A DNA stretch of 64,000 nt from Escherichia coli. Lineage in GTDB: Bacteria > Pseudomonadota > Gammaproteobacteria > Enterobacterales > Enterobacteriaceae. Made by a program: the position numbers and the translations under genes. Positions 4,993 through 51,685 of the stretch are shown here, one piece after another. The stretch lies in the NCBI RefSeq assembly GCF_003790525.1, contig NZ_CP033633.1; one strand, 5' to 3'. Within the stretch, counting starts at the first letter, position 1; each line of letters opens with the position of its first letter. The notes beneath the pieces are model-generated. The model saw only the letters and a list, made by a program, of their open reading frames with translations, was not told where the DNA came from and ran no database searches.

Positions 4993-5637
4993 TCAAAATA
5001 CTTCTGCAACAGGAACACCGGCAACTTTTTCCCACTCTTTAACCCGATACCGGATCATCTGCGGGAAACGTTCCTTGTACTCATATCCACGTGCAGCCAT
5101 GGTGTGCATGGTGTTGGCCAGCGTCCTTGCTGAGATGCCGGAGATCTCAAGAGGAATCATCGGCAGACTCACATAGGTGGTGTGGATTTCCAGCTTGCCG
5201 TCTTCAGCAACTGTTCGGGTGAAGTTGTGAATATCCAGACCAATCACATCCATCACATTGTTTGGATAAATACGCACATACAGCATGGTGCCGTTTTTAA
5301 TGTCGATCCCGAAATAACAACTCTTTGAGAATGACAGTTGCTCGTAATCGCTGGTCGGCGCAAAGGGACTGCTTTCTTTTATCTTCTTAACAACCTGCAG
5401 GATTTTCTTTTTCTTCGCTCTGGTTTTCAGATATAGCCAGAGTAATGGGATTATGAGTAACGTCCAACTTCCATATGCATATATATAATCATATTTAGTT
5501 GAATAGATATCTAGACTTAATGCTGTAAAAGCAATGGCACAAAAAATTAAAAATGGAACTCCAAATAAAAAATAAGCGTTGCGGACAAGGTAATAATATG
5601 CCCACCAGGAAGGATATCTGCTTTTTTGTTCATTCAT
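4993..5637 (-). CDS. membrane protein at the position of entry-exclusion gene excA (downstream of traY)
   Basis: 214 aa, two N-terminal TM segments then a Lys-rich linker and soluble domain; AT-rich N-terminal half; identity as ExcA is by position and size only. Confidence 0.4.
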   Translation of the reverse strand: MNEQKSRYPSWWAYYYLVRNAYFLFGVPFLIFCAIAFTALSLDIYSTKYDYIYAYGSWTLLIIPLLWLYLKTRAKKKKILQVVKKIKESSPFAPTSDYEQLSFSKSCYFGIDIKNGTMLYVRIYPNNVMDVIGLDIHNFTRTVAEDGKLEIHTTYVSLPMIPLEISGISARTLANTMHTMAARGYEYKERFPQMIRYRVKEWEKVAGVPVAEVF

Positions 5638-8531: not shown

Positions 8532-9733
8532 CTTACGCTCCCCTGGCTCATGGCCTGTGACAGTTCACCGAGACGCTGTCCGTAATACTGTCGTGCCGCC
8601 AGTGCCAGCTGCTGCCCGGCGATAACATTACCCTGGCGTATCTGCTCTTTCAGGTCGTTCATCTGCCAGTTCAGCAGGGCGGTAGTGCGCAGCAGTTCAC
8701 GGAGAAGGTTATCGCCTTCCATGCCCTGCAGATCCTGCTGCCAGTCGGTGTTTGCATAGCGTCTGCCGGCTTCAAAGGCCTCAAACTCCCGCTGGCTCAT
8801 GTGACCACGGGTGCGGGCCTCTGATGATGCGGTACGGTCAAAATATGCCGCAGCGGATGGTGACTGCAGGGCTTCAGTCAGTGCTCCACGGGTGGCCTCA
8901 TTAGGGGTACTGTCAGCTATCAGTGACAGTTGCGGATGAGAGGCGGCATCGATGATGCCGTTGTATTCATTCTGCAGGCCCACATACGTGCGCCCGGTCT
9001 GTGTTCCCACTTCACCTTTCCCCGGGGCACGACCCGCTGACGGTCTGGCGGTGTTTTTCATATAAGCCGTGGCGGCATCAATCTGTTTCTGATCCCAGGT
9101 GAGGGCGGCAGGGGTATCTGCTGTGCCTGCGCCCTGATAGAGCGATCGTACCTGGCTGTCTCCGCCCGGCAGATCGCCCACGGCAGGGCAGACATCGGTT
9201 CCGCCAAAGCGGGCATACTCCGCTTCCGTGCAGTAACCGGCGTGGATGCCGGCACTGTCATACGCCTCGCGGACCGGGGAGTCTGCAGCCCGGGAGAGAC
9301 GTTCCCGGATGGGTTTACTGCTGACCCCTCCCCCCTGACTCAGACGTGCCGCTGCAGACGCTGCTGCCCGGCGGCTTTCTGCTGCAATGCCGGACGCGGA
9401 TTCACTGCAGATGGAGTCCGGCACGCTGAAGCTTTTCCTGGCCTCCTCGAGGCGGTGTGTTTCATTACTGAATATCATCTGCTGACGGGTGGCCTGCCCG
9501 TCCTGGGCAATGACGGTGGCCAGTTTTTCTGAGTTCTGGGTGATGGCTGTGCCGGTGGCCGTCTGCATACGGACCATCTCTGCCATCACGCCCTGAATGG
9601 CGGCCAGCTCCGGCATGATCTGTCGGGTGACCGGCTGACTGGACACAACATTCACAGAGTAGGCATGGGTGGCAGGGATAACCGCACAGCCTATCAGGAG
9701 TGCAAGCAGTGTGGTTGCAGATTGTCTTTGCAT
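8528..9733 (-). CDS. traW: conjugal transfer lipoprotein (TraW by position); start taken at internal ATG 9733
   Basis: Track ORF 8528..9838; internal Met gives signal peptide MQRQSATTLLALLIGCAVIPATHA and about 401 aa. Confidence 0.5.
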   Translation of the reverse strand: MQRQSATTLLALLIGCAVIPATHAYSVNVVSSQPVTRQIMPELAAIQGVMAEMVRMQTATGTAITQNSEKLATVIAQDGQATRQQMIFSNETHRLEEARKSFSVPDSICSESASGIAAESRRAAASAAARLSQGGGVSSKPIRERLSRAADSPVREAYDSAGIHAGYCTEAEYARFGGTDVCPAVGDLPGGDSQVRSLYQGAGTADTPAALTWDQKQIDAATAYMKNTARPSAGRAPGKGEVGTQTGRTYVGLQNEYNGIIDAASHPQLSLIADSTPNEATRGALTEALQSPSAAAYFDRTASSEARTRGHMSQREFEAFEAGRRYANTDWQQDLQGMEGDNLLRELLRTTALLNWQMNDLKEQIRQGNVIAGQQLALAARQYYGQRLGELSQAMSQGSVR

Positions 9734-10311
9734 TCTTTTTTCTCCGTTTTCGGGGGATACAGGATGTCTGGTACGCGATGACTGAGTGATTCCGGCAGCG
9801 GAGCCAGCGGGAAACACTGGAAGCGGCGCGTGATCCATCCCTGACGGTTACGGTTATCGATGAGCGTGAAGGTACGACGCTTCACGCGTTTCAGTGTCGG
9901 GGTGTCGCTTTCCATGACCGGCCAGTCTCCGGCTGTGAGTGCCGGTGTGCCGTGGACATCCGGCCACAGCCAGGTGTTGTCAGACATCAGCGCAGTGAGT
10001 GGTGCGGGCAGAAGCCAGTGAATGACATGCTGTATATCAAAAGGCGGTCGCTCCGGCACGTTAACCTGCCAGGTGGCCGTTGTTATCAGCGTGCCTGTCT
10101 CTCCGGGCAGGGCCAGGCGAATACCACTCATCTCCCCGTCAGCCCGTCTGTCACTGGCAAAAATGACCCGGGGATTGGGGGACGGTCGCAGTGTGAAGCA
10201 GGCGGACGGCAGGGTGAAGCTGAAACTGTCACCGTCCACGCGCAGCGTTTTCAGGAAGACCTGTCCCCGTGCAGGACGCCGGCAGCGGGGAGTGATGTGT
10301 ATGCTGTACAT
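9694..10311 (-). CDS. traV: conjugal transfer protein (TraV by position)
   Basis: 205 aa ORF tightly packed between traU and traW. Confidence 0.4.
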   Translation of the reverse strand: MYSIHITPRCRRPARGQVFLKTLRVDGDSFSFTLPSACFTLRPSPNPRVIFASDRRADGEMSGIRLALPGETGTLITTATWQVNVPERPPFDIQHVIHWLLPAPLTALMSDNTWLWPDVHGTPALTAGDWPVMESDTPTLKRVKRRTFTLIDNRNRQGWITRRFQCFPLAPLPESLSHRVPDILYPPKTEKKECKDNLQPHCLHS

Positions 10312-13300
10312 CAGAGGTGATATCCCTGCTTACGGATGAGTTCCGCAGCCAGATCATGGATGACGTTTTCACTGTCATGTGTACGGGCGCGGTGTTCTAT
10401 CAGTGAGGTGGCTGAACCACGGGGAAAGTTTTCTGCCAGGATCTGGCGTGCCCGCAGTGACCCGAGCTCCTGCGTCAGCGCACGTCTCAGGGCGCTGTCT
10501 TTGGGTGAGGAATTCAGAGCCCACAGCTCCAGTGGACCGAGAGTGAATTTCAGGATCCGGGCCAGCGTACCGTTTTTTACACGGAACACAGCCAGTACCG
10601 GGACACCGCTGCCATCCGGTGCAGCCCCTTCCGGCATTTTCAGAAAGCGCCGCAGGGTGACTTCAGGGACACCAAAATTATCCCGCAGAAACGGAATTTC
10701 GTCAGGGCGGTAACGCAGCAACCAGAGGGTGTTGGCGGATTTGAGAACTGCCGGTGGATAGTCCTGCAGTAGCTGGGTGCTCAGCACTGTGCGTATCCCG
10801 AACTTACGCTGCTCCAGCTCCTGGGTGTCCAGGGCTTCCCAGATGAAGTTGATCCCTTTTGCATTGTGCAGTTCGTCATAGACTTTGGTCTTGACCTCCT
10901 GATCAAGCTGTTCAATGCGGCGGAAAATCACCTCATGGTAGCGTGGGTCGAGATTTTTCCGTATTTCCTCCTGATACTGCGGCAGGACAAAATCCCCGCC
11001 GGCGATTTGTCCTGCCAGCAGGTACATGATGCCGGTGCGCAGACGCCCGGCAGGTGTCTTGTCACCGGCCACATTGTTCAGATCAACGGCCACAACGCGG
11101 GTGTCGGGGCTGAGCATAAACCGGGTACAGCCGGACATCATCGGGTAGTCACTGTGTCCCTGATCGAGGGCACGGCGGATGTAGTCCAGTAACAATTCTG
11201 CTGAGTTATCGCGCTGAACTGTGCCGAACACATCCCGGATGGATGGCTGTCCCAGCAGGGCGGACATTTCAGCCAGCAGGGGCATGGCCTGGTAGTGTGC
11301 CCGCTGGGCTGCGGGGATATTGCCAGCCATATGCAGCATGTCCCTGATTTCAAACCAGGTGGCAGCATTCCACCATCCGGCATCATGTTGTTCTGCGATG
11401 CCACTCTCTTCCAGGGCGAGATCCACAAGGGGCTCTGTTCCTGCACGGTACAGTCTGGGGTTGTTTTCGCCATACTCCCTGAAGGCCAGATCCACCAGGT
11501 TGCTTATGATTTGCCGGGTGTCACCGGGATTACAGGGCTGACCGGTGCCGGTATCCACGCACAGTGCGCAGAGTACAGATACCATGAAGTTCTTTTCCGG
11601 GGTGGCGGGTTTTTTAGCACCGTACATCACATCAAACAGGTTACGGGTGTGTTCCGGATCATTGCTCAGAATGATCCCCACGGCTTCGTCCTTTCTCTGC
11701 TCCGGCAGGCTGTCACGGATAAGCTGTACCAGTCCCTGTGCACTGAATCCCTTGTCGATATAGGCAATGAAAGGCAGGTTCTTCTGGGCTGAGGCTATCT
11801 GGATCTCCGACAGTGCGTTGATGAGTACCGATTTGCCCAGACCGGGTGCGCCGGGCGTCAGTTCCGTGTGCTTGTTCTGTTGTGACGATGCCAGCGCGAC
11901 CTCCCATGCAGAGCCGTCTTCGGTGTGCATCATCAGATTTCCCTGTCCCCGCCAGACAGAGCCGGCCCTGTTCAGGGGAAACAGGGAAAGGGCGTGTGAA
12001 AGGGGCGGGTAAAGGGGGACTGGACCGGAACCGTGGGAGGCCGCCAGAACCGTGTTCACCCAGGCACGTCTCGGATCACCGAAGGTGGTGGTGGTGCCGC
12101 ATACTCCCCAGCCTTCCAGCGCAGATTTCAGGAGAGCCTGGTTGCGGGTACAGACTTCCCGGCTGTTTCCCCATGTGGTGGCAACAATGGTCATGATACA
12201 GACCGGATCATGTTTGTTGATGTCATTCAGCATCATCACCGAGTCATACATGGGCCGGAGAGGGGAAATAAAGCTGCTGTAGGTCAGCAGGGTTTTCTTG
12301 ACCCCAAGCGCCTTCATGCCGCCGGGCATCAGATCCATCCGGATACGCCAGGGGATTGCGCGGGGCACATCCCTGACCAGCTGGTTGAATGTCCGCAGAT
12401 TCTGGGGTGGCAGGGTAATGGCGACCATACCGTGCCAGAGGTCACCGGCCTTTATCAGGCTGCCGTGTGTTTCAGGCTGTGTGGTGAATAACTGCAGATT
12501 CAGCGACGGTGCGTGGAATACAGAGGTATCCTCGCCCTGTCGCCAGCCGGCAGGACGGGCATCTTCAGGCAGATGAGGCTGCCATACTGCAGGTGTGCTG
12601 TTGCGCTCCAGTTGACGGCGGATTTCCCGTCCCACTTCATGAATATCCATCAGGCGAACCAGCAGACCATCAGAATCATGTGTCAGGGCCTGCTCCAGCG
12701 TGTCCAGAAAGGCGTCATGCCGTATTTTGAGTGCGGAAAGTGTCCAGCGCCATGGATCCTGCGCAAATCGGGCTGGCGGAGCGTGTTCAGCGAGTTTCCT
12801 GATACGGGTCTGGTGGTCCTTGCGATCGGTCCGGCTCAGCAGTTCTTCAGAGCTCCAGACGGTCAGCCAGCAGCGTTCCCGGACAAGCCAGGGGGTGAGC
12901 GTGGTGACTTTTTCATCCAGAACGTCCTGAAGCAGGATCCCCGTACGTGCGATGGATTTTCGCTGGGGTAAGAGCATGGCTTCGATTTCATCCCTTCCAC
13001 GCTCCGGATCGCGTTCGAAAACAAAACTGATTTTGTGACCGGTGTTTTTATAGGCAGTGTTCATTCGCTCTGCCAGCGCTGTTATCAGTGATTCCAGTGT
13101 GCCGGGGGCTGTCAGGTCCGGGTTTTCATCCATTTCTTTCAGGGCACCGCTGATTTCAAAGACGGAAAGGTAATACCCCTGTTTTGTGGTGGCAATGTAG
13201 GGGGCTTTCAGCCAGGGGCGGCGTTCGCGGTCCTGCTGGTCCAGACCGATGACGGTGTGCAGATCACAGTAATCGGGGAAGAATGCGGAAACGGAATACC

Positions 13301-13355
13301 GTGACAGGGTACTGATACAGTCTTCAATGGCAAAAATAATGCGGTTGATATTCAT
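10311..13355 (-). CDS. traU: conjugal transfer ATPase TraU (DotO/IcmB-like)
   Basis: 1014 aa, same length as R64 TraU; large uninterrupted ORF with strong coding character. Confidence 0.8.
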   Translation of the reverse strand: MNINRIIFAIEDCISTLSRYSVSAFFPDYCDLHTVIGLDQQDRERRPWLKAPYIATTKQGYYLSVFEISGALKEMDENPDLTAPGTLESLITALAERMNTAYKNTGHKISFVFERDPERGRDEIEAMLLPQRKSIARTGILLQDVLDEKVTTLTPWLVRERCWLTVWSSEELLSRTDRKDHQTRIRKLAEHAPPARFAQDPWRWTLSALKIRHDAFLDTLEQALTHDSDGLLVRLMDIHEVGREIRRQLERNSTPAVWQPHLPEDARPAGWRQGEDTSVFHAPSLNLQLFTTQPETHGSLIKAGDLWHGMVAITLPPQNLRTFNQLVRDVPRAIPWRIRMDLMPGGMKALGVKKTLLTYSSFISPLRPMYDSVMMLNDINKHDPVCIMTIVATTWGNSREVCTRNQALLKSALEGWGVCGTTTTFGDPRRAWVNTVLAASHGSGPVPLYPPLSHALSLFPLNRAGSVWRGQGNLMMHTEDGSAWEVALASSQQNKHTELTPGAPGLGKSVLINALSEIQIASAQKNLPFIAYIDKGFSAQGLVQLIRDSLPEQRKDEAVGIILSNDPEHTRNLFDVMYGAKKPATPEKNFMVSVLCALCVDTGTGQPCNPGDTRQIISNLVDLAFREYGENNPRLYRAGTEPLVDLALEESGIAEQHDAGWWNAATWFEIRDMLHMAGNIPAAQRAHYQAMPLLAEMSALLGQPSIRDVFGTVQRDNSAELLLDYIRRALDQGHSDYPMMSGCTRFMLSPDTRVVAVDLNNVAGDKTPAGRLRTGIMYLLAGQIAGGDFVLPQYQEEIRKNLDPRYHEVIFRRIEQLDQEVKTKVYDELHNAKGINFIWEALDTQELEQRKFGIRTVLSTQLLQDYPPAVLKSANTLWLLRYRPDEIPFLRDNFGVPEVTLRRFLKMPEGAAPDGSGVPVLAVFRVKNGTLARILKFTLGPLELWALNSSPKDSALRRALTQELGSLRARQILAENFPRGSATSLIEHRARTHDSENVIHDLAAELIRKQGYHL

Positions 13356-13530
13356 GGCATGGGGTACTCCGGTAAGGATGAATCATCACGGTCTTATATT
13401 TTTTGATGCCACAGCAGGGGATGTGGCATGAAAAAACAGCAGAGAAAATAAATAATCTGTTGAGGGGCGGGTGCGTATTTCTGTGTGATTACAGTAAATA
13501 ATAAAAATGTAATAAGGTGGAAACACGCTG

Positions 13531-13914
13531 TCAGCGTAGTGAATTTACTGGCGGATAAGTGATTTTATTAATATGTACAACAATACATTTTCTTCTTTCA
13601 TTTCGTATAAATACAGGGGGGATATAAAAGAAACGGAGACTGCAGAGACAGAGATGCAGTTGTTTTCCCCGTTTCCTTAATGAAAATTCAGTCAGGGGTG
13701 TGGCCGGATAATTATGCCGGGCGCTTAATTCCCTGTTGAACTGAAGTATTCCGGCAATATTCAGCAGTATGCCGGCCAGCCTGCCGTCATCATCCCGAAG
13801 GAACCGACGGAGTAGCCGGTGCTCTTCTTTGGCGGTACTGTCAGCTTTTCCGGCCAGGTGTGCGTGGATGAGTGTTATAAGCGTCTCCGGGGATATGCGG
13901 TGAATTTTCATCAT
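13531..13914 (-). CDS. hypothetical protein in tra array, 127 aa
   Basis: ORF overlapping the next gene by 4 bp; its C-terminal third runs into AT-rich intergenic sequence, so the true extent is uncertain. Confidence 0.3.
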   Translation of the reverse strand: MMKIHRISPETLITLIHAHLAGKADSTAKEEHRLLRRFLRDDDGRLAGILLNIAGILQFNRELSARHNYPATPLTEFSLRKRGKQLHLCLCSLRFFYIPPVFIRNERRKCIVVHINKITYPPVNSLR

Positions 13915-14339
13915 TCTTCTCCTGATTTTGTCGGGGGCACACCCGGATAGATAAACTGCTGGCGGCGAATGAAAAAATCACAGAAGGGCATATCCGGTAA
14001 TTCCGGGAGACCGGATACGGCAATATCCATCCATGAGAGATAGTTATCGACGCTCACTGTGACGGTGATGCAGTCATGGGTACGGGATTTTTCATGAATT
14101 TCTGCAGCCAGAAAGAGCAGCCAGCCGCCGTTAAATGCCGGGTGGCGGAGAATGAACCGGGCAATCTCTTTTTCAACTCCATCAGGCGGAATATCGTCCG
14201 TCAGTGTCCGGATAATAAAGTGCCGGAATGCATCAGCGGTGAACTGATATGCGGCAGAGAGGGTATTCATTTTTGTTCCTCTGTAAGTTGAGAGGGCCGG
14301 CAGAACGTCATCGGTACCGGTGTGGGAGGGCTGCATCAC
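13911..14339 (-). CDS. hypothetical conjugal transfer protein, 142 aa (TraS/TraT region)
   Basis: Coupled ORF (4-bp overlaps on both sides) in the tra array. Confidence 0.35.
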   Translation of the reverse strand: MMQPSHTGTDDVLPALSTYRGTKMNTLSAAYQFTADAFRHFIIRTLTDDIPPDGVEKEIARFILRHPAFNGGWLLFLAAEIHEKSRTHDCITVTVSVDNYLSWMDIAVSGLPELPDMPFCDFFIRRQQFIYPGVPPTKSGEE

Positions 14340-15154
14340 CAGACGAACTCCCTGTCAGGAAACGAATCCGGCAGCAGAATGAGCGCCACCCCGTCCATTT
14401 TCTCCCGCAGTGTTTTACGCTGTGCCGGCGGCCAGCGGCGCAGTGCATCAGCAAAATCCGCCGGACGCCAGGTGCGAAATTTCTCCTCAACGGCCAGGCG
14501 GTTCTGTACCAGGGCATTCAGTACGGCCCGTCCCTGTCTGATTCGCTTACGCTCATCGCTGAAAATTTCCTTCAGTGCCCGTGCATTGAGAGCAACTACC
14601 GAGGCCGGATGCAAATCAGGGAGCCAGACCATCACCCCCTGTGCGGCAGCGTAGCCGTTCAGGCAGTGCCAGGCGTGGCAGAAGGCACAGAGATGAAAGG
14701 GCGGGCCTTCAGGCTGCAGCAGTTCACTTTCATTTTCGCTGAGTGCATCTGTTGTGACGATTTGTGACTTTTCCACATGACGCAGGGCCAGTCGCCTGGC
14801 CGACAGGCGGGCCTGTGCCAGGGACCGCTCCGCATCCTGCAGGGTTCGGGTGTGTTTCTTTTTTTCGTCAGCGTTTTCCGGTACCGGATGTTTTTTCAGG
14901 CGCATCACCCGGGTGAGGTTTTTTTCCAGCAGGACGACCGTATCCCGGCAGGTGTCAGCCATCTGCTGTAATGGCCATGAATCCTCCAGAATGAAGCGGT
15001 GAGTGACGGTCCTGCGACAGCAGGGACAGCGTCCGGGTGTTGAGAGCACGGGTGGTGGCAGCAGGGATTCACCGCTGAATACCGTGTCCGGTTGCGGGAG
15101 CGGGAAAAGCCAGCGTTCCCGGGCCGGGGCGATGAGTGGCGGTGTTTTGTTCAT
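14336..15154 (-). CDS. hypothetical conjugal transfer protein, 272 aa, with Cys/His cluster (TraT by position)
   Basis: Contains HLCAFCHAWHC motif suggestive of metal binding; position between traR and traU. Confidence 0.4.
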   Translation of the reverse strand: MNKTPPLIAPARERWLFPLPQPDTVFSGESLLPPPVLSTPGRCPCCRRTVTHRFILEDSWPLQQMADTCRDTVVLLEKNLTRVMRLKKHPVPENADEKKKHTRTLQDAERSLAQARLSARRLALRHVEKSQIVTTDALSENESELLQPEGPPFHLCAFCHAWHCLNGYAAAQGVMVWLPDLHPASVVALNARALKEIFSDERKRIRQGRAVLNALVQNRLAVEEKFRTWRPADFADALRRWPPAQRKTLREKMDGVALILLPDSFPDREFVW

Positions 15155-15376
15155 ACGTTTTTCTCTCTGTATACAGGGTGACGGCAGCCAGAATCAGTGC
15201 TGCGATGGCGGTGGAATAACATTCTGCAAACACAAACTCCTGATTATCCCGGTTGTCGCGGGCAATCACGTTGCCGTGCTCTGTTCTGAGCAGGGTGAAA
15301 GGGGGCAGCTCACAGGACATGGTCTGGTCCTCTTCATTGTGTGAAGACGGCACCGGGAAACCGGTGCCGTTGTGGA

Positions 15377-15775
15377 TTAACTGATGGAGACCGGAGAAAG
15401 ACCGAGCGTTTTCTGTCCACTGCTCATCATTTCCGGTACGACGGCAAGACAGGCACCGACCACAATGGACAGTATGCAGGCCACCCCTGCTCCGGGTTTT
15501 TTACCGATTTGTTTGAGGCCAAGCAGGCCGGCAATAAAGAGCACCAGGCCAATAACCTGAGCGATGGTCACAAATGAACTGCTGGAGCCTTTTGCACCAT
15601 CGCCAACGGTTTTGATCATATCGAATAGGGTGTTTGCCATCGCTGTGTGGGGCAGCAGTATCACGGGAAGCAGAAGTAACAGGCGTATCAGCCGGTCACG
15701 GCAGGCCACCAGGCATAACTGAACATAAATAAATGCAGCGCACAGACGCGCCGCCATGGCACGGAATCGTGACAT
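15377..15775 (-). CDS. traR: small conjugal transfer membrane protein (TraR by position)
   Basis: 132 aa ORF with two TM segments; true start may be the internal MANTLFDMIK. Confidence 0.4.
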   Translation of the reverse strand: MSRFRAMAARLCAAFIYVQLCLVACRDRLIRLLLLLPVILLPHTAMANTLFDMIKTVGDGAKGSSSSFVTIAQVIGLVLFIAGLLGLKQIGKKPGAGVACILSIVVGACLAVVPEMMSSGQKTLGLSPVSIS

Positions 15776-15821
15776 ATAGTCTCCTTAACTAACAGACTGA
15801 ATTACTGAAAATGAATGTGGA

Positions 15822-16352
15822 TCAGAAGGCGAGACCAAGACTCGCCAGAGAGGCATCGATGACGCGATCGATAAAAACCAGCAGAACGCCGGCAACAAAC
15901 TTGACGTTTCCTTTGCTGATGGACTCACTGCTGCTCAGGGCGGTATGCCCGTCCAGCAGGGATTTACGCCAGATGGAAATGCCGTTCATGGCAAATCCCA
16001 CTCCGGCCAGTTTTACCAGTGAGAGCATGGCATTGGCGGCACCGGCAGCGGCACCAAAGGTGGTTGGTTGTACATAAGCGATAGGGCCGAAGGAATCTGC
16101 CCTGAATCCCATCTGGGTACCCCCGGCATTGATGAAGGATGGCAGGGCGACCAGCATGCCGCAGATGACGATACCGGCGATAAATTTTCCCGGTCCCATA
16201 CTGTGACGCCCTTCTGCCCGGGCGCGCATCAGATGACCAATCAGGCCGATAATCCCCAGCAGCTCTCCCCAGGTGAAGAGAAACTCCATGCCTGCACTGA
16301 ATATACCGCTGGCAAAGTTCTCTATGGCTGTCAGGGCATCAATGCTCATCAT
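15822..16352 (-). CDS. traQ: conjugal transfer membrane protein (TraQ by position, DotE/IcmC-like)
   Basis: 176 aa polytopic membrane protein, overlaps traP stop by 4 bp. Confidence 0.45.
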   Translation of the reverse strand: MMSIDALTAIENFASGIFSAGMEFLFTWGELLGIIGLIGHLMRARAEGRHSMGPGKFIAGIVICGMLVALPSFINAGGTQMGFRADSFGPIAYVQPTTFGAAAGAANAMLSLVKLAGVGFAMNGISIWRKSLLDGHTALSSSESISKGNVKFVAGVLLVFIDRVIDASLASLGLAF

Positions 16353-17062
16353 CGTAATGTACCGGCAGAGGTGATGACTGAGCGGCTGGACGGTTCAATC
16401 CGGGTGATGGTGATATTCCCCAGCCTGTCACCTTCCCGTACTGCCCAGGCGCTACCCTGCCAGCGGATCCAGGCCATTCCTTTTTCCACCGACATGATTT
16501 GCATGCCCTGCAGGCGGGAAGGCGGGGTTTTCGTTGACTGGCCGTTATTCCCGGTCGGGATTTGCAGTGGTCCCTGCATCTGCAGGGCATGCACCTGCTT
16601 ACGGGTTTCATCAAGCAACTGACGGGTTTCCTGTGCCCAGGCCTCATCTTTCCGTATGGTGTCGCCAAGGGTTGTGATGCTCTCTTTCAGCATGGTCAGG
16701 GTACGTCGGATTTCCTCATCCCGCCTGTCCAGCTCTGCTTTCAGGTCACGGGCAAGCTGCTGCATGTCTGCCTGTGGGGTGACAGGAGGCGCGGACATGG
16801 TGTTTCCGCTCCCGGTCTCCGTCATGGGCATGGGCTCTGCCCAGCTTTCAGCAGCGGGCGGTGTGACCGCGAAGCCTGCATCTGCAGGGGGCTCTGAGGG
16901 TGTCCGCAGAAACTTGTACCAGACTGCGGCCAGGATGATGAGGACACAGCCGGCCCAGACTGGCAGGCTGTATCCCATATACTGGCGTTTCAGGAAGGAT
17001 TTGCCGGATGCCGGTGTCGTTGTTTCGCCAAAACTGCCGGGATCTTCATGTTCGTTTTTCAT
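16349..17062 (-). CDS. traP: conjugal transfer protein (TraP by position, DotF/IcmG-like)
   Basis: 237 aa, single TM plus coiled-coil-like region; coupled to traO and traQ. Confidence 0.5.
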   Translation of the reverse strand: MKNEHEDPGSFGETTTPASGKSFLKRQYMGYSLPVWAGCVLIILAAVWYKFLRTPSEPPADAGFAVTPPAAESWAEPMPMTETGSGNTMSAPPVTPQADMQQLARDLKAELDRRDEEIRRTLTMLKESITTLGDTIRKDEAWAQETRQLLDETRKQVHALQMQGPLQIPTGNNGQSTKTPPSRLQGMQIMSVEKGMAWIRWQGSAWAVREGDRLGNITITRIEPSSRSVITSAGTLR

Positions 17063-18390
17063 GGATGACTTTCCTGTTGTATTCCGTAACGTTGCCGCAT
17101 TTCGTTCTGTTTACGCATGACAGCTGCCTGGATCCTGTCAGACGCCTGACGCTCTGCTTCTTCCTGGGTGAGCGGGCGTCCGGAGGGCGGTGGCACAGAA
17201 GGGGCAGTGCCGGAGGAGGGGGGACTGATATCGTTGCTCATGACCGGCTCAACAAACAGAATGGAGACAACCTCTCCGCGTGACACTGTCACCTGCCGGT
17301 AAGGTTCGCTCTCCGCCTGGCGGGTCAGCAACTGACTGCCCCGTTCGGCCATGCCGCCTGCAATGACGCCAGCCAGCGCCTCGCCATCAGGCATTCCCAC
17401 CCTGCCGGTAATGCTGCCGTAGTTTCCCTGAATGACCTGTGTGTTGGCGTCTTTGTAAAGACTTCCGACACTGCCCACCCCACCGAGCACGGACGGCAGA
17501 ACGATATGCTTAAACCAGCGGTGGTTCACGTCGCTGGCCACGGATGACATGCCGGTATGTTCATTCAGGGCATATGCATTGACTTTCAGAAACATGCCCC
17601 GCCACATCATCCGGTCAAAGTGGATATCCATTCCCTTGCCGGCGAGTCTGGCGTCCTGGCTGTAGAGGACGGCCCCGGCCCATGGGCCGGCAGGTACGGA
17701 GGCCACCACGCGGGAGACAGCATTGTCAGAGTCCACTTCCGTATCAATGAAGGCAGGTACGCGGGTCAGTGCCGGTATCAGCTGTATCCCTGTACGAGCT
17801 GCCGGGGTTGCCAGACTGGCCTCCTGCAGACGTGGTTGTGGTGATGTGCCGGTACCGGGTGGTGAGGCATGTGAGCTTATCCCGGGAGCACCAGTGGTAC
17901 CCCACATTGCAGCCGCCACTACCGGGGGGCGAGCGTCAGGATGCTGTGTGTTGATGCGGGCAAGCAGTTTTTGTAACGCTTCCCGCTGTTTTTCCCGGTC
18001 TGTTTGATCTGCCTGAGGGGGCGTTGATGGTTGACCAGAACCCTCTGCCTGGTCAGCAGGCTGAGTATCCCTTCTTTGATTATTTCCGTGATCAGTATCC
18101 AGTCCCCTGGGCAGACTGGCGATGAATGTCTGGTTATTACGTAATGCTTCTGCGGCCCCGCGCTCATTGTCAGCACGCAGTAAATCCCGGTAGTGCTGTG
18201 ACTCCACCACGGTCCTCCCGCTGCCTGTTGTCGTGCTGTTGATATTGACTGACGAGAGCGATGCGCTGTTTTCGGGGGAAAGCCAGGTGAGCAGCAGGTA
18301 TCCGCCCCCGATGATAATCACGCCCCCGAGAACCAGCAGGGCTGACAGTTTTTTGCCGGACTTTGCGGCTGTGTCCTGTTCTGTGCTCAT
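17059..18390 (-). CDS. traO: conjugal transfer protein TraO (DotG/IcmE-like)
   Basis: 443 aa, N-terminal TM, Pro/Gln-rich linker, conserved C-terminal domain; size and position match R64 TraO. Confidence 0.6.
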   Translation of the reverse strand: MSTEQDTAAKSGKKLSALLVLGGVIIIGGGYLLLTWLSPENSASLSSVNINSTTTGSGRTVVESQHYRDLLRADNERGAAEALRNNQTFIASLPRGLDTDHGNNQRRDTQPADQAEGSGQPSTPPQADQTDREKQREALQKLLARINTQHPDARPPVVAAAMWGTTGAPGISSHASPPGTGTSPQPRLQEASLATPAARTGIQLIPALTRVPAFIDTEVDSDNAVSRVVASVPAGPWAGAVLYSQDARLAGKGMDIHFDRMMWRGMFLKVNAYALNEHTGMSSVASDVNHRWFKHIVLPSVLGGVGSVGSLYKDANTQVIQGNYGSITGRVGMPDGEALAGVIAGGMAERGSQLLTRQAESEPYRQVTVSRGEVVSILFVEPVMSNDISPPSSGTAPSVPPPSGRPLTQEEAERQASDRIQAAVMRKQNEMRQRYGIQQESHP

Positions 18391-18393
18391 GAT

Positions 18394-35582: not shown

Positions 35583-36018
35583 ATATCATGCGCCGGGCTG
35601 TGTTATTTTTGCTGAAACCGGCGTTATAGCTGCCCAGGCATTCCCAGTTAACGCCGCAGCGTTGAAAATGGCGGGCCAGTATCCAGGCACCGGTATGAAT
35701 ATTCAGGCAGGGCTTTTTAAGCAGTTCATCCTTGTTTTTAATGACGCCCAGTTTTTTCAGTTCAGGAATATGCACTGAATTAATCTGCATTATTCCGTAA
35801 TCCGTACTGATGATTTTTCCGGATTTGTTTTTATTGTGATTTATCGCAGTGGCGACCAGGCCGCTTTCCTGCTGTGCAATGGTTTTCAGAAGCTCAGGGG
35901 CAATCAGGTAACGTTTTCCGGCCTGAATAAAACAGGAATCGAGATGATTATTATTCATCACAGATGCGATTGATGTGTTACTGAATAAAAGCAGGACAGA
36001 GAGATATAACCATTTCAT
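35542..36018 (-). CDS. pilT: lytic transglycosylase PilT
   Basis: Signal peptide plus ESGL...DYGIMQINS motif typical of soluble lytic transglycosylases. Confidence 0.7.
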   Translation of the reverse strand: MKWLYLSVLLLFSNTSIASVMNNNHLDSCFIQAGKRYLIAPELLKTIAQQESGLVATAINHNKNKSGKIISTDYGIMQINSVHIPELKKLGVIKNKDELLKKPCLNIHTGAWILARHFQRCGVNWECLGSYNAGFSKNNTARRMIYARKIHNRYFRQY

Positions 36019-45706: not shown

Positions 45707-46102
45707 ATGATAAAGAAGATGTGGCGTTATTTACGGCAAATTGATAAGTATGAATTGCTGCAGCAGGTGATTTCAGTACATGAAGTGGAACTGCTCAGGA
45801 AAATGATGACAGATTCATTATTAGGGTGCTCAGTAGGATATGTGTTTTCGAAAATACTGAAGATATTCTTTCTGCGTTTTATTCAGTCTGAGGGGGGATG
45901 GGATATTATTACTTACTTTTTGTGGATGCTGGGAATACTTATTGTCATGGCCGCGCTGTTTATCTGGATGTGCGCCGCTGTATGCTATGAGCTTCGGATG
46001 TATAAAATAAAAACAGGAAGGGAGAACGATATATTATTCTGGGTGTGGATTCTTCTTTTTGATGTCGCGGTTGTATTTTCGCTGGGTAATGTTATCTGGT
46101 GA
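45707..46102 (+). CDS. hypothetical membrane protein, 131 aa, AT-rich
   Basis: Plus-strand ORF in an AT-rich block upstream of pilL; two or three TM segments. Confidence 0.3.
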   Translation: MIKKMWRYLRQIDKYELLQQVISVHEVELLRKMMTDSLLGCSVGYVFSKILKIFFLRFIQSEGGWDIITYFLWMLGILIVMAALFIWMCAAVCYELRMYKIKTGRENDILFWVWILLFDVAVVFSLGNVIW

Positions 46103-46849: not shown

Positions 46850-46929
46850 TTTCAATCCTCTTTTAAGCCAGAATATCCCGTGAGGGCATTCTTTGTGAAA
46901 AAGATGCCGGAAAAATTCCGGCACGGGGA

Positions 46930-48624
46930 TTAAACCTGTTGTGGTTCTGAGTTATCCGGAGTGGTTACCGGTTCGCTGACATCCGGAACCTTTTCCGGGG
47001 CAGGCATGACCAGTGGACGTGTCAGGGCTGTAAGTCCTTCACCGGATAAACCCACCTCTTTCAGCAGGGAGTCGATGAGCGGAGCCTGTGTACGGTAAGC
47101 CAGAGCGGCGGTTACTGCCTGTTCAGCGAGATTTCCGCCACTTATGTCGGTTGTTGCTGTTTTACCGCGGGTAACACCGCCATTCAGACCATCCACCTGA
47201 ATGATTTTAATACCGTCAATGGATTTCATTGGTTCTGTGGACTTCTCTATGACGGCAGGTAATGCATCCAGCAGGGCAAGACGGAAGCGGAGGCTGGTCT
47301 GCTCATCCGAAAGCACGTTAATGGCATCGTTCAGTGCGCGCTGTGCTTCTGCTTCTGCCAGACCTTTCTGACGGGTGGCCTCCGCCAGTTCAATAATTGC
47401 TGCTGCCTGGAGTTCGGCTGCTTCTTTTTCAGCCTGTGCGCGAACCGTCAGTTCAACCGCTTTCGTTTCAGCTTCCTGAGCAGCAGCAATCAGGGCAACC
47501 TGTTTGGTACGGCCGGCCTCTGCAGTCTGGCGGGTGGTTTCCACATCCTGCTGGGCCTGTACGGCCTCAGCCAGTGCTTTACTTGCCCGGGCTTCTGCCT
47601 GTGACTGCTCTTCCGATTTTGCCGCCACGGCAATGGCTCTGGCCTGGCTGGCGATTTCGGTTGCCTGCTGTTGTTCAATTTCCCGTATGGCCACTTCCCG
47701 TTCGGCTTCGACCTGGCGGGTACGCACTATCTGCTGTCGTTCGATTTCGGCTTCCTCTATCTTACGTTCAGCCAGAATTCGCGCGGATTCTGCTTCACGA
47801 CGTCGTTCAGCTTCAATAGCAGCAATACTGGCACTCTGCTCTGCCGTACGGGTTTTTACCCGTTGTTGTTGCTCCAGAGTCATGAAGGCTTCCTGCTGTT
47901 CAATCTCCAGACGTCGGGAGAGTGCATCCCGGTTTTTTTCCCTGATGGCCACTTCAACATCCTGCTCAACTTCGTTGCGTTCGCGGCGACGACGTTCTGT
48001 TTCCTGGGTCAGAAGGGTCAGGCCTTCAGCATCAAAGGCATTGTCAGGATTAAAATGTACCCGTGCAGTCTGGTTGAAACTTGTCAGCGACACACTTTCA
48101 AGCTCCAGACCGTTTTTGGATAAGTCTTCCGCAACGGTGTTCTGCACACCCTGAACAAAGTTCTCGCGGGCATCCTGTAAATCCTGCATGCTCATTCTGG
48201 CCGCCGTGGCCCGTAGGGCATCAACAAATTTATCCTCGACCAGACTACGCAGATCTTCAGGTGTGAGCGTGCGTTGTCCCAGCGTCTGGGCTGCAGTGGA
48301 TATTCCTTCGGCTGATGGTTTTACCCGAAGAAAAAAGGCAACGGCAACATCAACACGCATGCGGTCGCGGGTTATGAGACTTTCAGCCGCTGCACGACTG
48401 ACTTCCAGCTTCAGGGTGTTCATGTTGACGGGAATTGTTTCGTGAAAAATGGGCATAACAATTGCACCGCCACTCATTACCACTTTTTGGCCTCCCAGAC
48501 CTGTGCGGACAAAGGCCTGCTCTGCCGATGCCCGGCGGTACAGGCGGGCAAATATCAGCCCGATAACGAACAGGGTGAGGACCAGCGCTATAACGGTAAA
48601 CAACCATCCCGGAAGATTAAACAT
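46930..48624 (-). CDS. flotillin-like SPFH/band-7 protein (YqiK-like)
   Basis: 564 aa; N-terminal TM, SPFH-like domain, then long Ala/Glu/Arg/Gln-rich coiled coil; paired with an upstream NfeD-like gene. Confidence 0.8.
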   Translation of the reverse strand: MFNLPGWLFTVIALVLTLFVIGLIFARLYRRASAEQAFVRTGLGGQKVVMSGGAIVMPIFHETIPVNMNTLKLEVSRAAAESLITRDRMRVDVAVAFFLRVKPSAEGISTAAQTLGQRTLTPEDLRSLVEDKFVDALRATAARMSMQDLQDARENFVQGVQNTVAEDLSKNGLELESVSLTSFNQTARVHFNPDNAFDAEGLTLLTQETERRRRERNEVEQDVEVAIREKNRDALSRRLEIEQQEAFMTLEQQQRVKTRTAEQSASIAAIEAERRREAESARILAERKIEEAEIERQQIVRTRQVEAEREVAIREIEQQQATEIASQARAIAVAAKSEEQSQAEARASKALAEAVQAQQDVETTRQTAEAGRTKQVALIAAAQEAETKAVELTVRAQAEKEAAELQAAAIIELAEATRQKGLAEAEAQRALNDAINVLSDEQTSLRFRLALLDALPAVIEKSTEPMKSIDGIKIIQVDGLNGGVTRGKTATTDISGGNLAEQAVTAALAYRTQAPLIDSLLKEVGLSGEGLTALTRPLVMPAPEKVPDVSEPVTTPDNSEPQQV

Positions 48625-48650
48625 AGTGAGAACCTCTGTATATGTCGGGA

Positions 48651-49271
48651 TTAAAGAACATCCGGCCAGGGATTCAGTTCGCCCAGCCAGCGGGAACCGG
48701 AAAGACGGCAGACAATAATCACTTTGTCTCCTCGTCTGAATTCTTTCCCGGCCTCCGGCTCCAGCAACAGGTAATGAACCTGCCCGAAGCGGTCTGTGAA
48801 GCGACCTTCACAGGGGGAACCCGCCACTGCGTGATAACCGGTGATGGTGGCCATACAGCCGATGAATGCCTCCTCGGTGAGCGCCGTTGTTTCATCACGG
48901 GGTAACCAGGGGGCAATCAGTCTGCCGGTGCGGTGTACGAGAGGACATGTCAGCAGCAGGCAAAGTGGTGTAAGGAGAATGTTCGGGGCAGGAGCCTGCA
49001 GCAGATGAATAATAAGACCCTGCAGGAGAATGCCGGATATACCAAAAAAACCTGCCAGCATACAGAGGACGATCAGCAGGGGGATCCGTCCGATGTTCAG
49101 CCAGTCCAGCGCCTCTCCTGTCAGCCCCTCCGGTAAATCAGGTGTATCCATAGCTGAAGAGAGGGAGTGTCCGCAGAGCAGGGCGATAAGTTCAGCGATA
49201 CCAGTAAGCAGAACAAAAGTCAGGGCTGCCAGATAGGGTGCGTTATACGCGGTAAGTAACGCCAGTGTCAT
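48651..49271 (-). CDS. NfeD-like membrane protein (YqiJ-like)
   Basis: 206 aa; polytopic N-terminal region plus C-terminal soluble OB-like domain; immediately upstream of the flotillin gene. Confidence 0.65.
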   Translation of the reverse strand: MTLALLTAYNAPYLAALTFVLLTGIAELIALLCGHSLSSAMDTPDLPEGLTGEALDWLNIGRIPLLIVLCMLAGFFGISGILLQGLIIHLLQAPAPNILLTPLCLLLTCPLVHRTGRLIAPWLPRDETTALTEEAFIGCMATITGYHAVAGSPCEGRFTDRFGQVHYLLLEPEAGKEFRRGDKVIIVCRLSGSRWLGELNPWPDVL

Positions 49272-49537: not shown

Positions 49538-50203
49538 TCAGTGTAACAGGTGATTGCTGTGATCTATGCCCCATTCGGCTTTCGGTAAACCTGAATGCCC
49601 CACATGAAGAATGCGTGACAGCATGTTTCTGCCGCTGCCGTTCAGGCTGCATTCGCGTCCGTGCGCGAGTATAAAACCTTCATCCCGGAATATATCTTCC
49701 ACTTCTGAAGATTCGAGGGATGCCGGATGAATTAATGAAAATGCCACCGGTCTGAGCATTCTGCCCGTGGTGGAAAAGGTGTCTCTGGTACTGTTCAGCT
49801 GCAGGATATGACGTTTACCTGTTTGCGCACGGGAAAGTGTCTCACTCAGCAGCTGGTCGTTCCATGCGCACGTGCCAATCTGCCATCCCAGACTTCTGCA
49901 CGCGGAAAGAGCCGAGCGGAAGCGGTACAGGTCGTATAATGCTGCGTTATTGCCACTTTCCAGCAGTGATTTCAACGTATTTGCTACCGGTATGTCCGTA
50001 TTGGTGGCCAGCAGTTTTCGCAGAGTCGTAAACTCTTCTGCCATTCCTCTGAACTCGCGCATCTGACGGGCAGTGTCAAGCCAGTTCAGCAGGTAACGCC
50101 GGCGACGCCGTTCGTTGTTTATGTTGTCCGGGGCGGTGGAGAGTGCTTCGAGCATATTCTCCAGTAACAGAATGACAGGGTTTTCCTGGGATAGAATGGT
50201 CAT
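49538..50203 (-). CDS. hypothetical protein, 221 aa
   Basis: First ORF downstream of the NusG-like gene; no family recognised. Confidence 0.4.
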   Translation of the reverse strand: MTILSQENPVILLLENMLEALSTAPDNINNERRRRRYLLNWLDTARQMREFRGMAEEFTTLRKLLATNTDIPVANTLKSLLESGNNAALYDLYRFRSALSACRSLGWQIGTCAWNDQLLSETLSRAQTGKRHILQLNSTRDTFSTTGRMLRPVAFSLIHPASLESSEVEDIFRDEGFILAHGRECSLNGSGRNMLSRILHVGHSGLPKAEWGIDHSNHLLH

Positions 50204-50343
50204 AAAGGCGTCCTGAAAAAATGCCCGACAGCCGCTCTCCGTACACCCTCAGGTGTCACCGGTGCCGGGCATTGTGGAAACAGAAGGGAAAAAAATCCCG
50301 GCCATAAAGGCCGGGAAAAGTCGTCAAATTAAGACAGCAATTT

Positions 50344-51051
50344 TCATGTCAACGCTCCGTCATCAGATACCAGGTGCAGGAGCAGGGCGATCCTCGACTC
50401 CGGCAGAGGCTGTGCATCAAGCCGGAGGAGGTACTGGTAACGCGCTTTTGTCAGCCAGAGGGTGGAGGCAGCATCCAGCTCCTCCCTGGCTGCCGGATTG
50501 AGCGCAGGATCCGGGTACACTTTCATTAAAGACTGAACGATATCCTCCCTGACGGTTTTGATTTCACCGGCCATTTTCACGAAGCCCAGAAAGGCACTGT
50601 GACGGCGCAGGTGAGTGAAAGCGTGGCGTTCGGGGTCTGCTTTCAGAAAGAAGTAACCGGGAAACACGGCGTGTATATGACGACGGTAACCACAGACTTT
50701 ATCCGTGCGGCGGACCTTTTTCAGTATCAGGGGTGTCCAGGGAAGGACGTGTTGTTCGGAAAGCCAGGAAAAGAGATGTTCGCGGTTTTTGCCGGCAGGG
50801 ATGTACTGTGCCAGATACCAGTTGCGTTGATGTAATTCACTGATATTCAAAATCCGGAACGCTCCGCGAAAATCGATCCCCGCAGGGGGGCTTCGATGTT
50901 GTTGTGAACGGCGAATACATAAAGCATGTGTCGGAAACAGCGGCTGACCCACGTTCAGCCCGGCCTGCAGTTCTGACAGGCACATGCACTGTGCACTCTT
51001 GTTAGCCTTGTGGACGGTTTCGAGGCGGGCGAAAACCGACAACTCCTGCAA
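50344..51051 (-). CDS. NusG/RfaH-family transcription antitermination factor paralog (ActX/TraB-like)
   Basis: NGN-domain alignment by eye to RfaH (WYLAQY vs WYLLYC; VFPGYFFLKADPE vs LFPNYLFVEFDPE); C-terminal domain does not show a KOW motif; real start may be TTG at 50850 (about 169 aa). Confidence 0.6.
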   Translation of the reverse strand: MQELSVFARLETVHKANKSAQCMCLSELQAGLNVGQPLFPTHALCIRRSQQHRSPPAGIDFRGAFRILNISELHQRNWYLAQYIPAGKNREHLFSWLSEQHVLPWTPLILKKVRRTDKVCGYRRHIHAVFPGYFFLKADPERHAFTHLRRHSAFLGFVKMAGEIKTVREDIVQSLMKVYPDPALNPAAREELDAASTLWLTKARYQYLLRLDAQPLPESRIALLLHLVSDDGALT

Positions 51052-51531
51052 ACAGGATTAATGGCTGGCAAATATATTACATAAGGATGTATCTGTGGCA
51101 ATAGTGAATATAAGTAGTTGAATAGATCGTTATATTTGATAAATAAGCGTATTATGCTGATTTGTGTGCAGTGTCTGGAGGATTAGATCGCTTAAAAATT
51201 TTAGGCGATCTCTTCTACTAAAAATGATGAAAAAAACAGCATAAAAGATCGTTTGTGAAATTGTTCATTTTTTGACACAGTTCAAAAAAACGACGCTTTT
51301 TAGGGGGTTAAAGAGGGCAACTGTAACCCTGAGAAATCGTGTCGGCTTTTCAAAGCGGTGGAAAAGGGGTATATTGCGGATCGTTATTCAGTGGCTTTTG
51401 GGATCCTCGCGGTCCGGAAAGCCAGAAAACGGCAGAATGCGCCATAAGGCATTCAGGATGTATGGCAGAAACGACGGCAGTTTGCCGGTGCCGGAAGGCT
51501 GAAAAAAGTTTCAGAAGGCCATAAAGGAAAA

Positions 51532-51582
51532 CCCCCATAATCTTCTCATCGAACTTGGCGGAACGTTAGAAGATTATGGGGG
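51532..51582 (-). ncRNA. candidate antisense copy-control RNA region (CopA/Inc-RNA-like stem-loop in repA leader)
   Basis: Perfect 15-bp inverted repeat CCCCCATAATCTTCT / AGAAGATTATGGGGG with about 21 nt loop, about 100 bp upstream of repA; promoter and 3' end not mapped. Confidence 0.35.
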
Positions 51583-51608
51583 CCTCACAGAATACGGGAT
51601 AAGTATAT

Positions 51609-51650
51609 ATGAAACCGTGTCAGAGATTCAACCCTTCGCAGTGTATTAAC
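51609..51650 (+). CDS. possible repA leader peptide (13 aa)
   Basis: ATG AAA CCG TGT ... TAA ([13 protein letters not shown]) 36 bp upstream of the repA start. Confidence 0.25.
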
Positions 51651-51685
51651 GCACGGCATTCTGTTTCCGCCATAAGCGACAGCTT

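Follow-up and report, generated by a model that had tools for sequence, protein, structure and literature searches.

Judged by its homology and gene order, the open reading frame (ORF) that heads the long minus-strand gene array of the window (i.e. the whole 64-kb stretch of plasmid DNA analysed here) is traB of the traABCD regulatory region of I-complex plasmids, which encodes a NusG/RfaH-like activator of conjugation. Its coding sequence is most likely shorter than annotated. It is preceded by a conserved structured leader and followed by a conserved terminator, and this leader–traB–terminator layout is, as far as sequence can tell, the one expected of a self-loading antiterminator. The reading that we favour is that TraB is probably loaded in its own leader and would carry RNA polymerase through two terminators into traC and the pil and tra genes.

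The window region belongs to an IncK2/Z (I-complex) plasmid: the 2.3 kb around the gene are 99.5% identical to Escherichia coli plasmids (e.g. pE16-3). On pE16-3-type plasmids the gene is annotated as 'transcription termination/antitermination NusG family protein' and is followed by traC, with repA divergent on the other side. We identify the gene as traB because of this annotation on near-identical plasmids and because homologues are present in more than 2,000 plasmid records. The window TraB shares 62–65% identity over 163/168 residues with TraB of IncI1/I-gamma plasmids (i.e. R64, R621a, pESBL and pESI), and it occupies the position of traB in the I-complex, adjoining rep on one side with traC and the pil genes on the other.

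For I-complex plasmids, both the identity of traB and its role are established textbook knowledge. TraDIS identified traBC as regulators that are required for I-complex conjugation (PMC10286972; see also PMC5801416), and TraB is known to be an essential positive regulator of transfer and pil genes (PMC5013300, PMC5801416, PMC10286972). For pESI, the likeness of TraB to NusG has been noted, and deletion of the gene prevents transfer altogether and reduces pilV, pilS and pilT transcripts by a factor of ∼4 (PMC5013300). Antitermination of tra operons by NusG paralogues of plasmids was put forward by Wang et al. (PMC7593976), and IncI-complex plasmids hold 45% of plasmid nusG-family genes (PMC11880322). 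In IncI1 plasmids, TraA exerts further control, and Hfq and small RNAs may do so as well (PMC5801416).

The first-pass annotation had described the protein as a NusG/RfaH paralogue with an NGN domain and without an obvious KOW motif, and our searches bear out both points. The NGN domain (Pfam PF02357) is matched in the window protein (E = 2.4e-5) and in 24/25 family members, while KOW (PF00467) is matched in 0/25. The best PDB sequence match of the family profile is the IncX3 protein PrfaH (9ik0; E = 5e-14 over the NGN domain), and the profile also matches RfaH over its whole length, C-terminal domain included (E = 5e-7). The NCBIfam RfaH models give E-values of ∼1e-8, though with scores below their curated cut-offs (NF006534, 36.2 bits vs 124; TIGR01955, 35.3 vs 144.5), and the LoaP model NF033641 likewise stays below its own (21 bits vs 125). 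TraB is a NusG-family protein that falls outside the curated RfaH and LoaP families. Its C-terminus aligns with the RfaH C-terminal domain up to residue ∼152–154 of 162, with the KOW glycines replaced. The 168-aa TraB of the window and most homologues stop before the last strand of RfaH, and the C-terminus of IncI1/I-gamma TraB is ∼9 aa longer (177 vs 168 aa).

Structure prediction agrees with these matches. In the AF2 model (mean pLDDT 74), the NGN domain reaches pLDDT values of 80–90 and the C-terminal domain is all-helical, at a low-confidence pLDDT of 47–69. The top Foldseek matches are RfaH, PrfaH and NusG, all with a probability of 1.00, and the best of them are autoinhibited RfaH and PrfaH. 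The model superposes on autoinhibited RfaH (8pib) with a target-normalised TM-score of 0.81, in which the C-terminal domain has a pLDDT of only 47–69. The predicted fold of TraB resembles that of autoinhibited RfaH and IncX3 PrfaH. However, RfaH-style coupling to the ribosome may not apply to TraB because its low-confidence C-terminal domain is KOW-less and ends before RfaH's last strand.

Three different starts can be proposed for the gene. The maximal ORF (50344–51051, minus strand) comprises 235 aa from a TTG codon, and the PGAP call on a 99.5% identical plasmid corresponds to 50344–50985 (213 aa). In the protein alignment, homologues from IncI-gamma, R621a, pESI, Yersinia, Enterobacter and Citrobacter all begin at the TTG codon at position 50850 of the window, and the aligned start codon varies among them (TTG, GTG or ATG). 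Upstream of this point, other loci have in-frame stop codons 11–40 codons before the aligned start, and the DNA alignment contains 1-nt indels that are not multiples of three. PGAP itself annotates the short 168-aa form on other plasmids. From these lines of evidence, the true start of traB is most likely TTG 50850, the corrected coding sequence occupies 50344–50850 on the minus strand (168 aa, i.e. the NGN domain plus the KOW-less C-terminal domain), and the apparent N-terminal extension is leader. The 213-aa and 235-aa N-termini were accordingly rejected as artefacts on the grounds of homologue start alignment, non-triplet indels and upstream in-frame stops. We found no earlier description of this start-codon correction.

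The leader and all its elements lie on the minus strand, as does traB. Its conserved core, a 5′ untranslated region of ∼170 nt, spans 50845–51015 (nhmmer E = 2e-44), and the ATG at 50985 chosen by PGAP falls inside its main stem. A covariance model of the leader scores 113 bits at this site and 9.5 bits at the next match in the window. The leader profile is found directly upstream of traB in 19/20 loci, down to 48% protein identity, and a second leader copy precedes traA in IncI1, I-gamma, pESI, pESBL and R64. Within the window, further copies of the leader or of its short blocks before the pil, tra or exc genes were sought with nhmmer, with the unfiltered covariance model and by allowing mismatches, and none was detected. 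A search of the window against Rfam returned no family for the leader and matched only the replicon PK-repZ and CopA-like RNA.

RNAalifold predicts two hairpins from the 14 aligned leaders, and both also appear in the single-sequence fold. The long stem of HP1 (50913–50998) comprises 19 + 4 consensus pairs, and its apical part varies. Its pairing was assessed with RNAalifold and pair counts on 14 aligned leaders, with slid partners and 500 shuffles as controls: 16 pairs of the leader show compensatory changes, and 89% of cells are paired vs 32–46% in the slid controls, a level reached in 0/500 shuffles. G–U pairs make up 59/414 cells. Pairing would fall to 77% of cells on the antisense strand, as against the 89% of the sense strand, so that it is the sense strand, most simply as RNA, that is under selection. 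HP2 (50872–50897; AUCGA-AGC-CCCC-CUGC-GGGG-A-UCGAU) lies 22–47 nt before the start codon, and the GATC in its 3′ arm (50875–50878, within GGATC) is kept in 14/14 aligned leaders. Its position is close to that of the PrfaH site at −42 to −25, and the two sequences are weakly alike. We regard HP2 as a candidate ops-like site.

The primary sequence of the leader is conserved in a few short blocks. The best conserved is the GTCAGAACTGCAG block at 50965–50977, which is placed in an internal or apical loop of HP1, occurs nowhere else on the window's minus strand and carries GUCAGAACUGCAG / GUCAGAACU. Also among the best-conserved sequences of the 14 leaders are GGATC and GCGCGGAGCGTT, the latter including a Shine–Dalgarno-like GGAG. 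This GGAG (50862–50865) is situated 11 nt before the TTG start within the TCGCGGAGCGTT block (50858–50869). The traA-leader copy of IncI-gamma carries this block unchanged and has no annotated ORF immediately after it. Further upstream, a promoter-like sequence (TTGCCA-16-TAATAT, 51074–51101), which is conserved in pO121, is the putative traB promoter. When the R64-drd11 and pESBL 'Hft' mutations were compared with leader copy 1, the pESBL differences at 35678 and 35662 lay 23–39 nt downstream of that element (35701–35867). We found no earlier description of the structured leader, its duplication or the invariant GATC in HP2.

The first-pass annotation had suggested looking for an ops-like pause element and a hairpin in the leader downstream of 50344. 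Conserved hairpins (i.e. HP1 and HP2) are present, but the canonical RfaH ops element GGCGGTAGnnTG has no match on the coding strand of the 64-kb window. Only two matches with one mismatch occur in the 64 kb, both on the plus strand, which is below chance expectation. The ops core GGCGGTAG was found in antisense orientation only, upstream of the traB leader in Yersinia and Erwinia loci. Homology between HP2 and the ops-like site of PrfaH was considered and rejected: the alignment is too weak, and the leader covariance model finds nothing in an IncX5 locus.

Downstream of traB, an intrinsic terminator (T1, 50289–50316, minus strand) begins 28 nt after the stop codon and consists of UCCCGGCC-UUUAU-GGCCGGGA followed by U7, with a hairpin at 50316–50296 of about −17.3 kcal/mol. 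In 14/16 distinct loci an equivalent terminator lies at this position, built from a stem of unrelated sequence, and Y. ruckeri has a weaker one. In the fold of the intergenic region, 13 nt separate the traC ATG from the end of a second terminator-like hairpin (T2, 50216–50272, minus strand), which is followed by U6. We likewise found no earlier description of the conserved terminator that follows traB. The next gene, traC (49538–50203, minus strand), encodes a 221-aa DUF2913-type co-regulator and follows traB in 18/19 loci, i.e. in every locus whose contig extends far enough. The TraC protein of the window has no Pfam match and no PDB sequence or fold match, and its only relatives in the AlphaFold database are DUF2913 proteins; its structure model is confident, yet without known fold relatives.

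The co-directional array beyond traB extends over 4938–50203 on the minus strand and comprises traC, genes for an NfeD-like protein and a flotillin, pilI–V, rci and the shufflon, traE–Y, sog and excA. From 50850 down to excA (4993–5637), the long ORFs are almost all on the minus strand, and the identities of the flotillin, PilN, the PilQ-type ATPase, the rci-type recombinase, TraY and ExcA were verified. Plus-strand interruptions are few (e.g. 45707–46102 and shufflon segments). ORF strands and gene identities bear out the initial description of a traB-headed minus-strand array from ∼51 kb to 5 kb with few opposite genes. A terminator closes the array after excA (4960–4938, minus strand), and terminator-like sites occur on its coding strand after the flotillin gene (46924–46904, minus strand) and at 25631–25614 (minus strand). 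Because promoter-like sites, plus-strand ORFs and an invertible shufflon occur within it, the array may consist of several operons.

We compared this arrangement with the closest known systems. RfaH, which acts with an ops element, is encoded on the E. coli chromosome and activates the F tra operon. TraB has the same NGN fold, a C-terminal domain that can be aligned to RfaH residues ∼115–154 and a predicted helical, autoinhibited-like state, and its proposed role, operon-specific antitermination of long horizontally acquired operons, is similar. Unlike RfaH, TraB has lost the KOW glycines, is plasmid-encoded and lies in cis to its target. LoaP is a Bacillus NusG paralogue that recognizes a leader RNA hairpin and keeps its KOW domain. 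Both LoaP and TraB are specialized NusG paralogues encoded beside their target operon, with a leader that contains a conserved hairpin and terminators. By contrast, TraB is KOW-less, scores only 21 bits with the LoaP model against a threshold of 125, and its RNA binding is putative.

A described parallel outside the I-complex is the ActX-type protein PrfaH of IncX3 plasmids (9ik0), which acts as an antiterminator by way of an ops-like site in the 5′ untranslated region of its gene and has a stem-loop termination signal before virB1 (PMC11880322). In both systems a promoter (putative for traB), a signal in the gene's own 5′ untranslated region ∼25–45 nt before the start (a candidate one for traB), the gene, a terminator and type IV secretion system genes follow one another, and the last 14 aa of PrfaH are dispensable (PMC11880322), which parallels the short C-terminus of TraB. 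However, the two proteins cannot be aligned outside the NGN domain. The TraB leader lacks the PrfaH site TCGGGGTCATCCGAG, showing only a weak CGGGG(A)TC resemblance, and it is much longer and contains a 19-bp covarying stem. Moreover, TraB serves MPF_I and a type IV pilus, whereas PrfaH serves MPF_T. Within the I-complex, IncI1/I-gamma plasmids (R64, pESBL-EA11 and pESI) have the same gene order (traB–terminator–traC–pil), leader element and rep neighbourhood. The IncK2/Z window differs from them in that it (i) has no traA and only a single leader copy, the first of the two being absent, (ii) has an NfeD-like/flotillin gene pair between traC and pilI and (iii) has a second terminator before traC.

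These comparisons suggest how TraB may work. Transcription would start near 51100–51074 and produce a leader of ∼215 nt followed by traB. When TraB is absent, most transcripts would stop at the strong T1 and at T2 before traC, as the terminator sequences suggest. By analogy with RfaH/ops and PrfaH, the NGN domain of TraB would bind RNA polymerase during elongation, at a signal within the traB leader, and the polymerase would become resistant to pausing and termination; the best candidates for this signal are HP2, which contains the invariant GGATC, and the GUCAGAACUGCAG loop of HP1. The modified polymerase would then pass T1 and T2 into traC and, beyond it, the flotillin, pil and tra genes, and TraC, the DUF2913 protein, would act as the second essential regulator. 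Because traB lies upstream of the terminators, such an arrangement could form a positive-feedback switch for transfer competence.

The proposal that TraB is an antiterminator, which the first-pass annotation also made, is well supported by homology, local anatomy and published genetics of homologues, and it is already in the literature (PMC7593976). Its extension to a single 45-kb transcript, with TraB on RNA polymerase throughout, and to Dam-sensitive control is conjecture. Our own analysis shows the homology and predicted fold, the synteny of traB and traC, and the conservation of both the structured leader and the terminator. That pil expression and transfer need traB and traC is known from published work on homologues of the window genes. 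A literature search on TraB read-through returned nothing relevant. Counting against the model are the missing canonical ops element, the weak similarity of HP2 to the PrfaH site, the low-confidence and KOW-less C-terminal domain, the additional control known from IncI1 and the possible division of the array into several operons.

The last of these bears on how far TraB would act. Instead of a single processive unit of 45 kb, TraB might read through T1 and T2 for the sake of TraC alone, and TraC, with or without TraB, might activate the pil, tra, trb and nik promoters in trans. The terminators sit exactly between traB and traC, traC is always the next gene after traB, the leader is single-copy in the window with no ops-like repeats elsewhere, and the array contains a terminator after the flotillin gene, plus-strand ORFs and the shufflon, all of which would suit such a cascade. 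In addition, nikB of pESBL, which lies outside the array, also responds to the regulators (PMC4288162). On the other hand, TraC has no recognizable DNA-binding or sigma-like domain and only DUF2913 relatives. We therefore consider the cascade possible but less likely than not to be the full account; a single leader copy is compatible with both schemes, and they are not exclusive, as they have the first step in common.

A different role for the leader itself is somewhat less likely again. Its hairpins could serve post-transcriptional control (e.g. of translation or stability, or as a target of a small RNA with Hfq) rather than the loading of TraB, in line with the preference of the structure for the sense strand, its many G–U pairs, the position of HP2 next to the Shine–Dalgarno region and the second leader copy before traA in IncI1. 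However, the element occurs only beside traB-family genes (19/20 loci), and in LoaP there is a precedent for recognition of a leader RNA hairpin by a NusG paralogue. Effects of hfq on traA and traBC, mentioned as unpublished by Poidevin et al. (PMC5801416), would fit post-transcriptional control, but the proven PrfaH site is found at the corresponding position of the prfaH leader (PMC11880322), which argues for a loading signal. It is very unlikely that TraB needs no site at all, i.e. that it is a NusG competitor or an ordinary activator that relieves Rho/NusG silencing of foreign genes wherever RNA polymerase is bound. The missing ops element and the absence from TraB of the KOW region, which contacts Rho in NusG, would accord with such a role, but the characterized specialized paralogues (i.e. 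RfaH, PrfaH and LoaP) all need a cis signal, the leader strictly co-occurs with traB and the predicted autoinhibited-like fold implies triggered recruitment. Loading of TraB in its own leader remains our preferred explanation.

The region upstream of the leader contains a cluster of four GATC sites (51125, 51186, 51207 and 51247) within 126 bp (51125–51250) at 31% GC, as the first-pass annotation had reported in describing an AT-rich, GATC-dense stretch. It is the only place in the 64-kb window with at least four GATC in 130 bp, the window mean being 2.3 per kb. The sites have the extended motif AACGATCT three times plus one inverted copy, and GATCG is oriented three times on the plus strand and once on the minus strand. 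Four other IncK/B/O/Z-type plasmids retain these positions and spacings (40, 21 and 61 bp), and the extended motif is likewise kept in IncK/B/O/Z relatives. The pO121 cluster has three extra tandem ACGATCT units. In IncI1-type plasmids, a stretch of ∼150 bp that is equally far from repA contains 7 GATC and lies upstream of traA and its leader copy, the first of the two. The region upstream of prfaH in an IncX5 plasmid has 6 GATC in 195 bp. From this conservation of positions, spacings and motif in relatives, and from the GATC clusters of IncI1-type and IncX5 plasmids, we conclude that the cluster is not a product of chance. It lies between divergent promoter-like sites for traB (51101–51074) and rep (51347–51375), and the rep control RNAs are located at 51523–51673.

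The function of the cluster is a separate question, on which a literature search for Dam/GATC control of I-complex tra or rep genes found nothing relevant. The most far-reaching answer is that the newly recognized leader is the recruitment signal for a KOW-less NusG paralogue, and that the GATC in HP2 and the upstream cluster make TraB loading or traB transcription Dam-dependent, so that under-methylated plasmids, newly transferred or newly replicated, would switch on the whole transfer regulon. We rate this combined proposal as a long shot. A considerably better chance, although one that falls short of even, attaches to the view that the cluster is no Dam switch for traB and either serves replicon control (i.e. 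SeqA/Dam timing of rep) or is incidental to an AT-rich region bound by H-NS that silences the traB promoter. In IncI-gamma as in the IncK-type window, the cluster is found ∼435–560 bp upstream of repA, while its distance to traB differs by ∼1 kb, and H-NS represses PprfaH in IncX3 (PMC11880322), which would fit a region of such low GC content. Against this view stand the number and spacing of GATC kept across IncK/B/O/Z plasmids, the extended motif common to the sites, the similar density upstream of prfaH in IncX5 and the further GATC inside HP2 that is invariant among the aligned leaders. If the Dam-dependent switch were real, it would provide a molecular basis for the transitory derepression and 'epidemic spread' of I-complex plasmids.

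Plasmids of the I-complex (i.e. IncI1, IncK, IncB/O and IncZ) are major carriers of ESBL and AmpC resistance genes, and their transfer depends on traB and traC. The corrected start, the single structured leader, the GATC in HP2 and the terminator(s) turn the general idea of antitermination into a model that can be tested by mutation. This model points to small cis targets, mutation of which could either raise or abolish the spread of I-complex plasmids.

Many of the traB starts given in sequence databases appear to be set too far upstream. Both the PGAP start (ATG at window position 50985, 213 aa) and the maximal-ORF start (TTG at 51051, 235 aa) lie within the conserved non-coding leader (window 50851-51051), and the N-terminus that they produce is probably wrong. 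It is present in hundreds of database entries, while others contain the 168-aa form.

The leader is also found elsewhere. An extra copy occurs upstream of hp1 and traA in IncI1/I-gamma/pESI-type plasmids, directly after their GATC cluster (L003 1412-1575; pESBL, L022 2702-2868, i.e. 35701-35867 of the pESBL record; R64, L024 3459-3625). Differences specific to R64-drd11 are located 23-39 nt downstream of this second copy. In pESBL the copy adjoins the 'Hft' region, where insertions increase transfer ∼20-fold.

The product of the gene after traB, TraC (window 49538-50203, minus strand), has no match in Pfam and none in the PDB, either by sequence or by fold. Its AlphaFold2 model is confident (pLDDT 84): the N-terminal half is helical, and the other half is rich in beta structure. 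Its relatives in the AlphaFold database are TraC and DUF2913 proteins only, some of which are chromosomally encoded in Vibrio, Photobacterium and Shewanella. Between traC and pilI, an NfeD-like gene (OB-fold, YqiJ-type) and a flotillin gene are inserted (window 46904-49271, minus strand) and closed by a terminator-like hairpin of their own (46924..46904). Neither gene is inserted there in IncI1/I-gamma plasmids. Some 16 kb of the tra/sog region present in the window (9685-25842) is missing from pE16-3, the closest of the plasmids used for annotation, and the window and pE16-3 are therefore not colinear throughout.

On the replicon side, the control elements (window 51523-51673) comprise a PK-repZ pseudoknot on the plus strand (Rfam, 177 bits) and a CopA-like antisense RNA on the minus strand (Rfam, 41 bits, below the gathering score). 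Two GATC sites (window 51379 and 51402) lie directly downstream of the rep promoter-like site.

In an IncX5 plasmid (L025), the ops-like sequence published for PrfaH, TTCGGGGTCATCCGAGTCG, precedes the prfaH gene at a distance of 27-45 nt (1150-1168), and a 195 bp stretch upstream of it (870-1064) contains six GATC sites, an echo of the I-complex GATC cluster. In the Yersinia ruckeri and Erwinia loci, the RfaH ops core GGCGGTAG is present ∼170 nt upstream of traB in antisense orientation (minus strand; L006 2325-2332, L013 2329-2336 and L015 2326-2333), directed toward the divergently transcribed side, which in Y. ruckeri pYR4 (L006) contains an HTH regulator gene. Between this gene and the traB leader, pYR4 contains a near-perfect long inverted repeat (AGCACCAAACTTCATCAGATCAAAT / ATTTGATCTGATGAAGTTTGGTGCT; L006 ∼2245-2300) with two GATC sites; the repeat looks like an operator.
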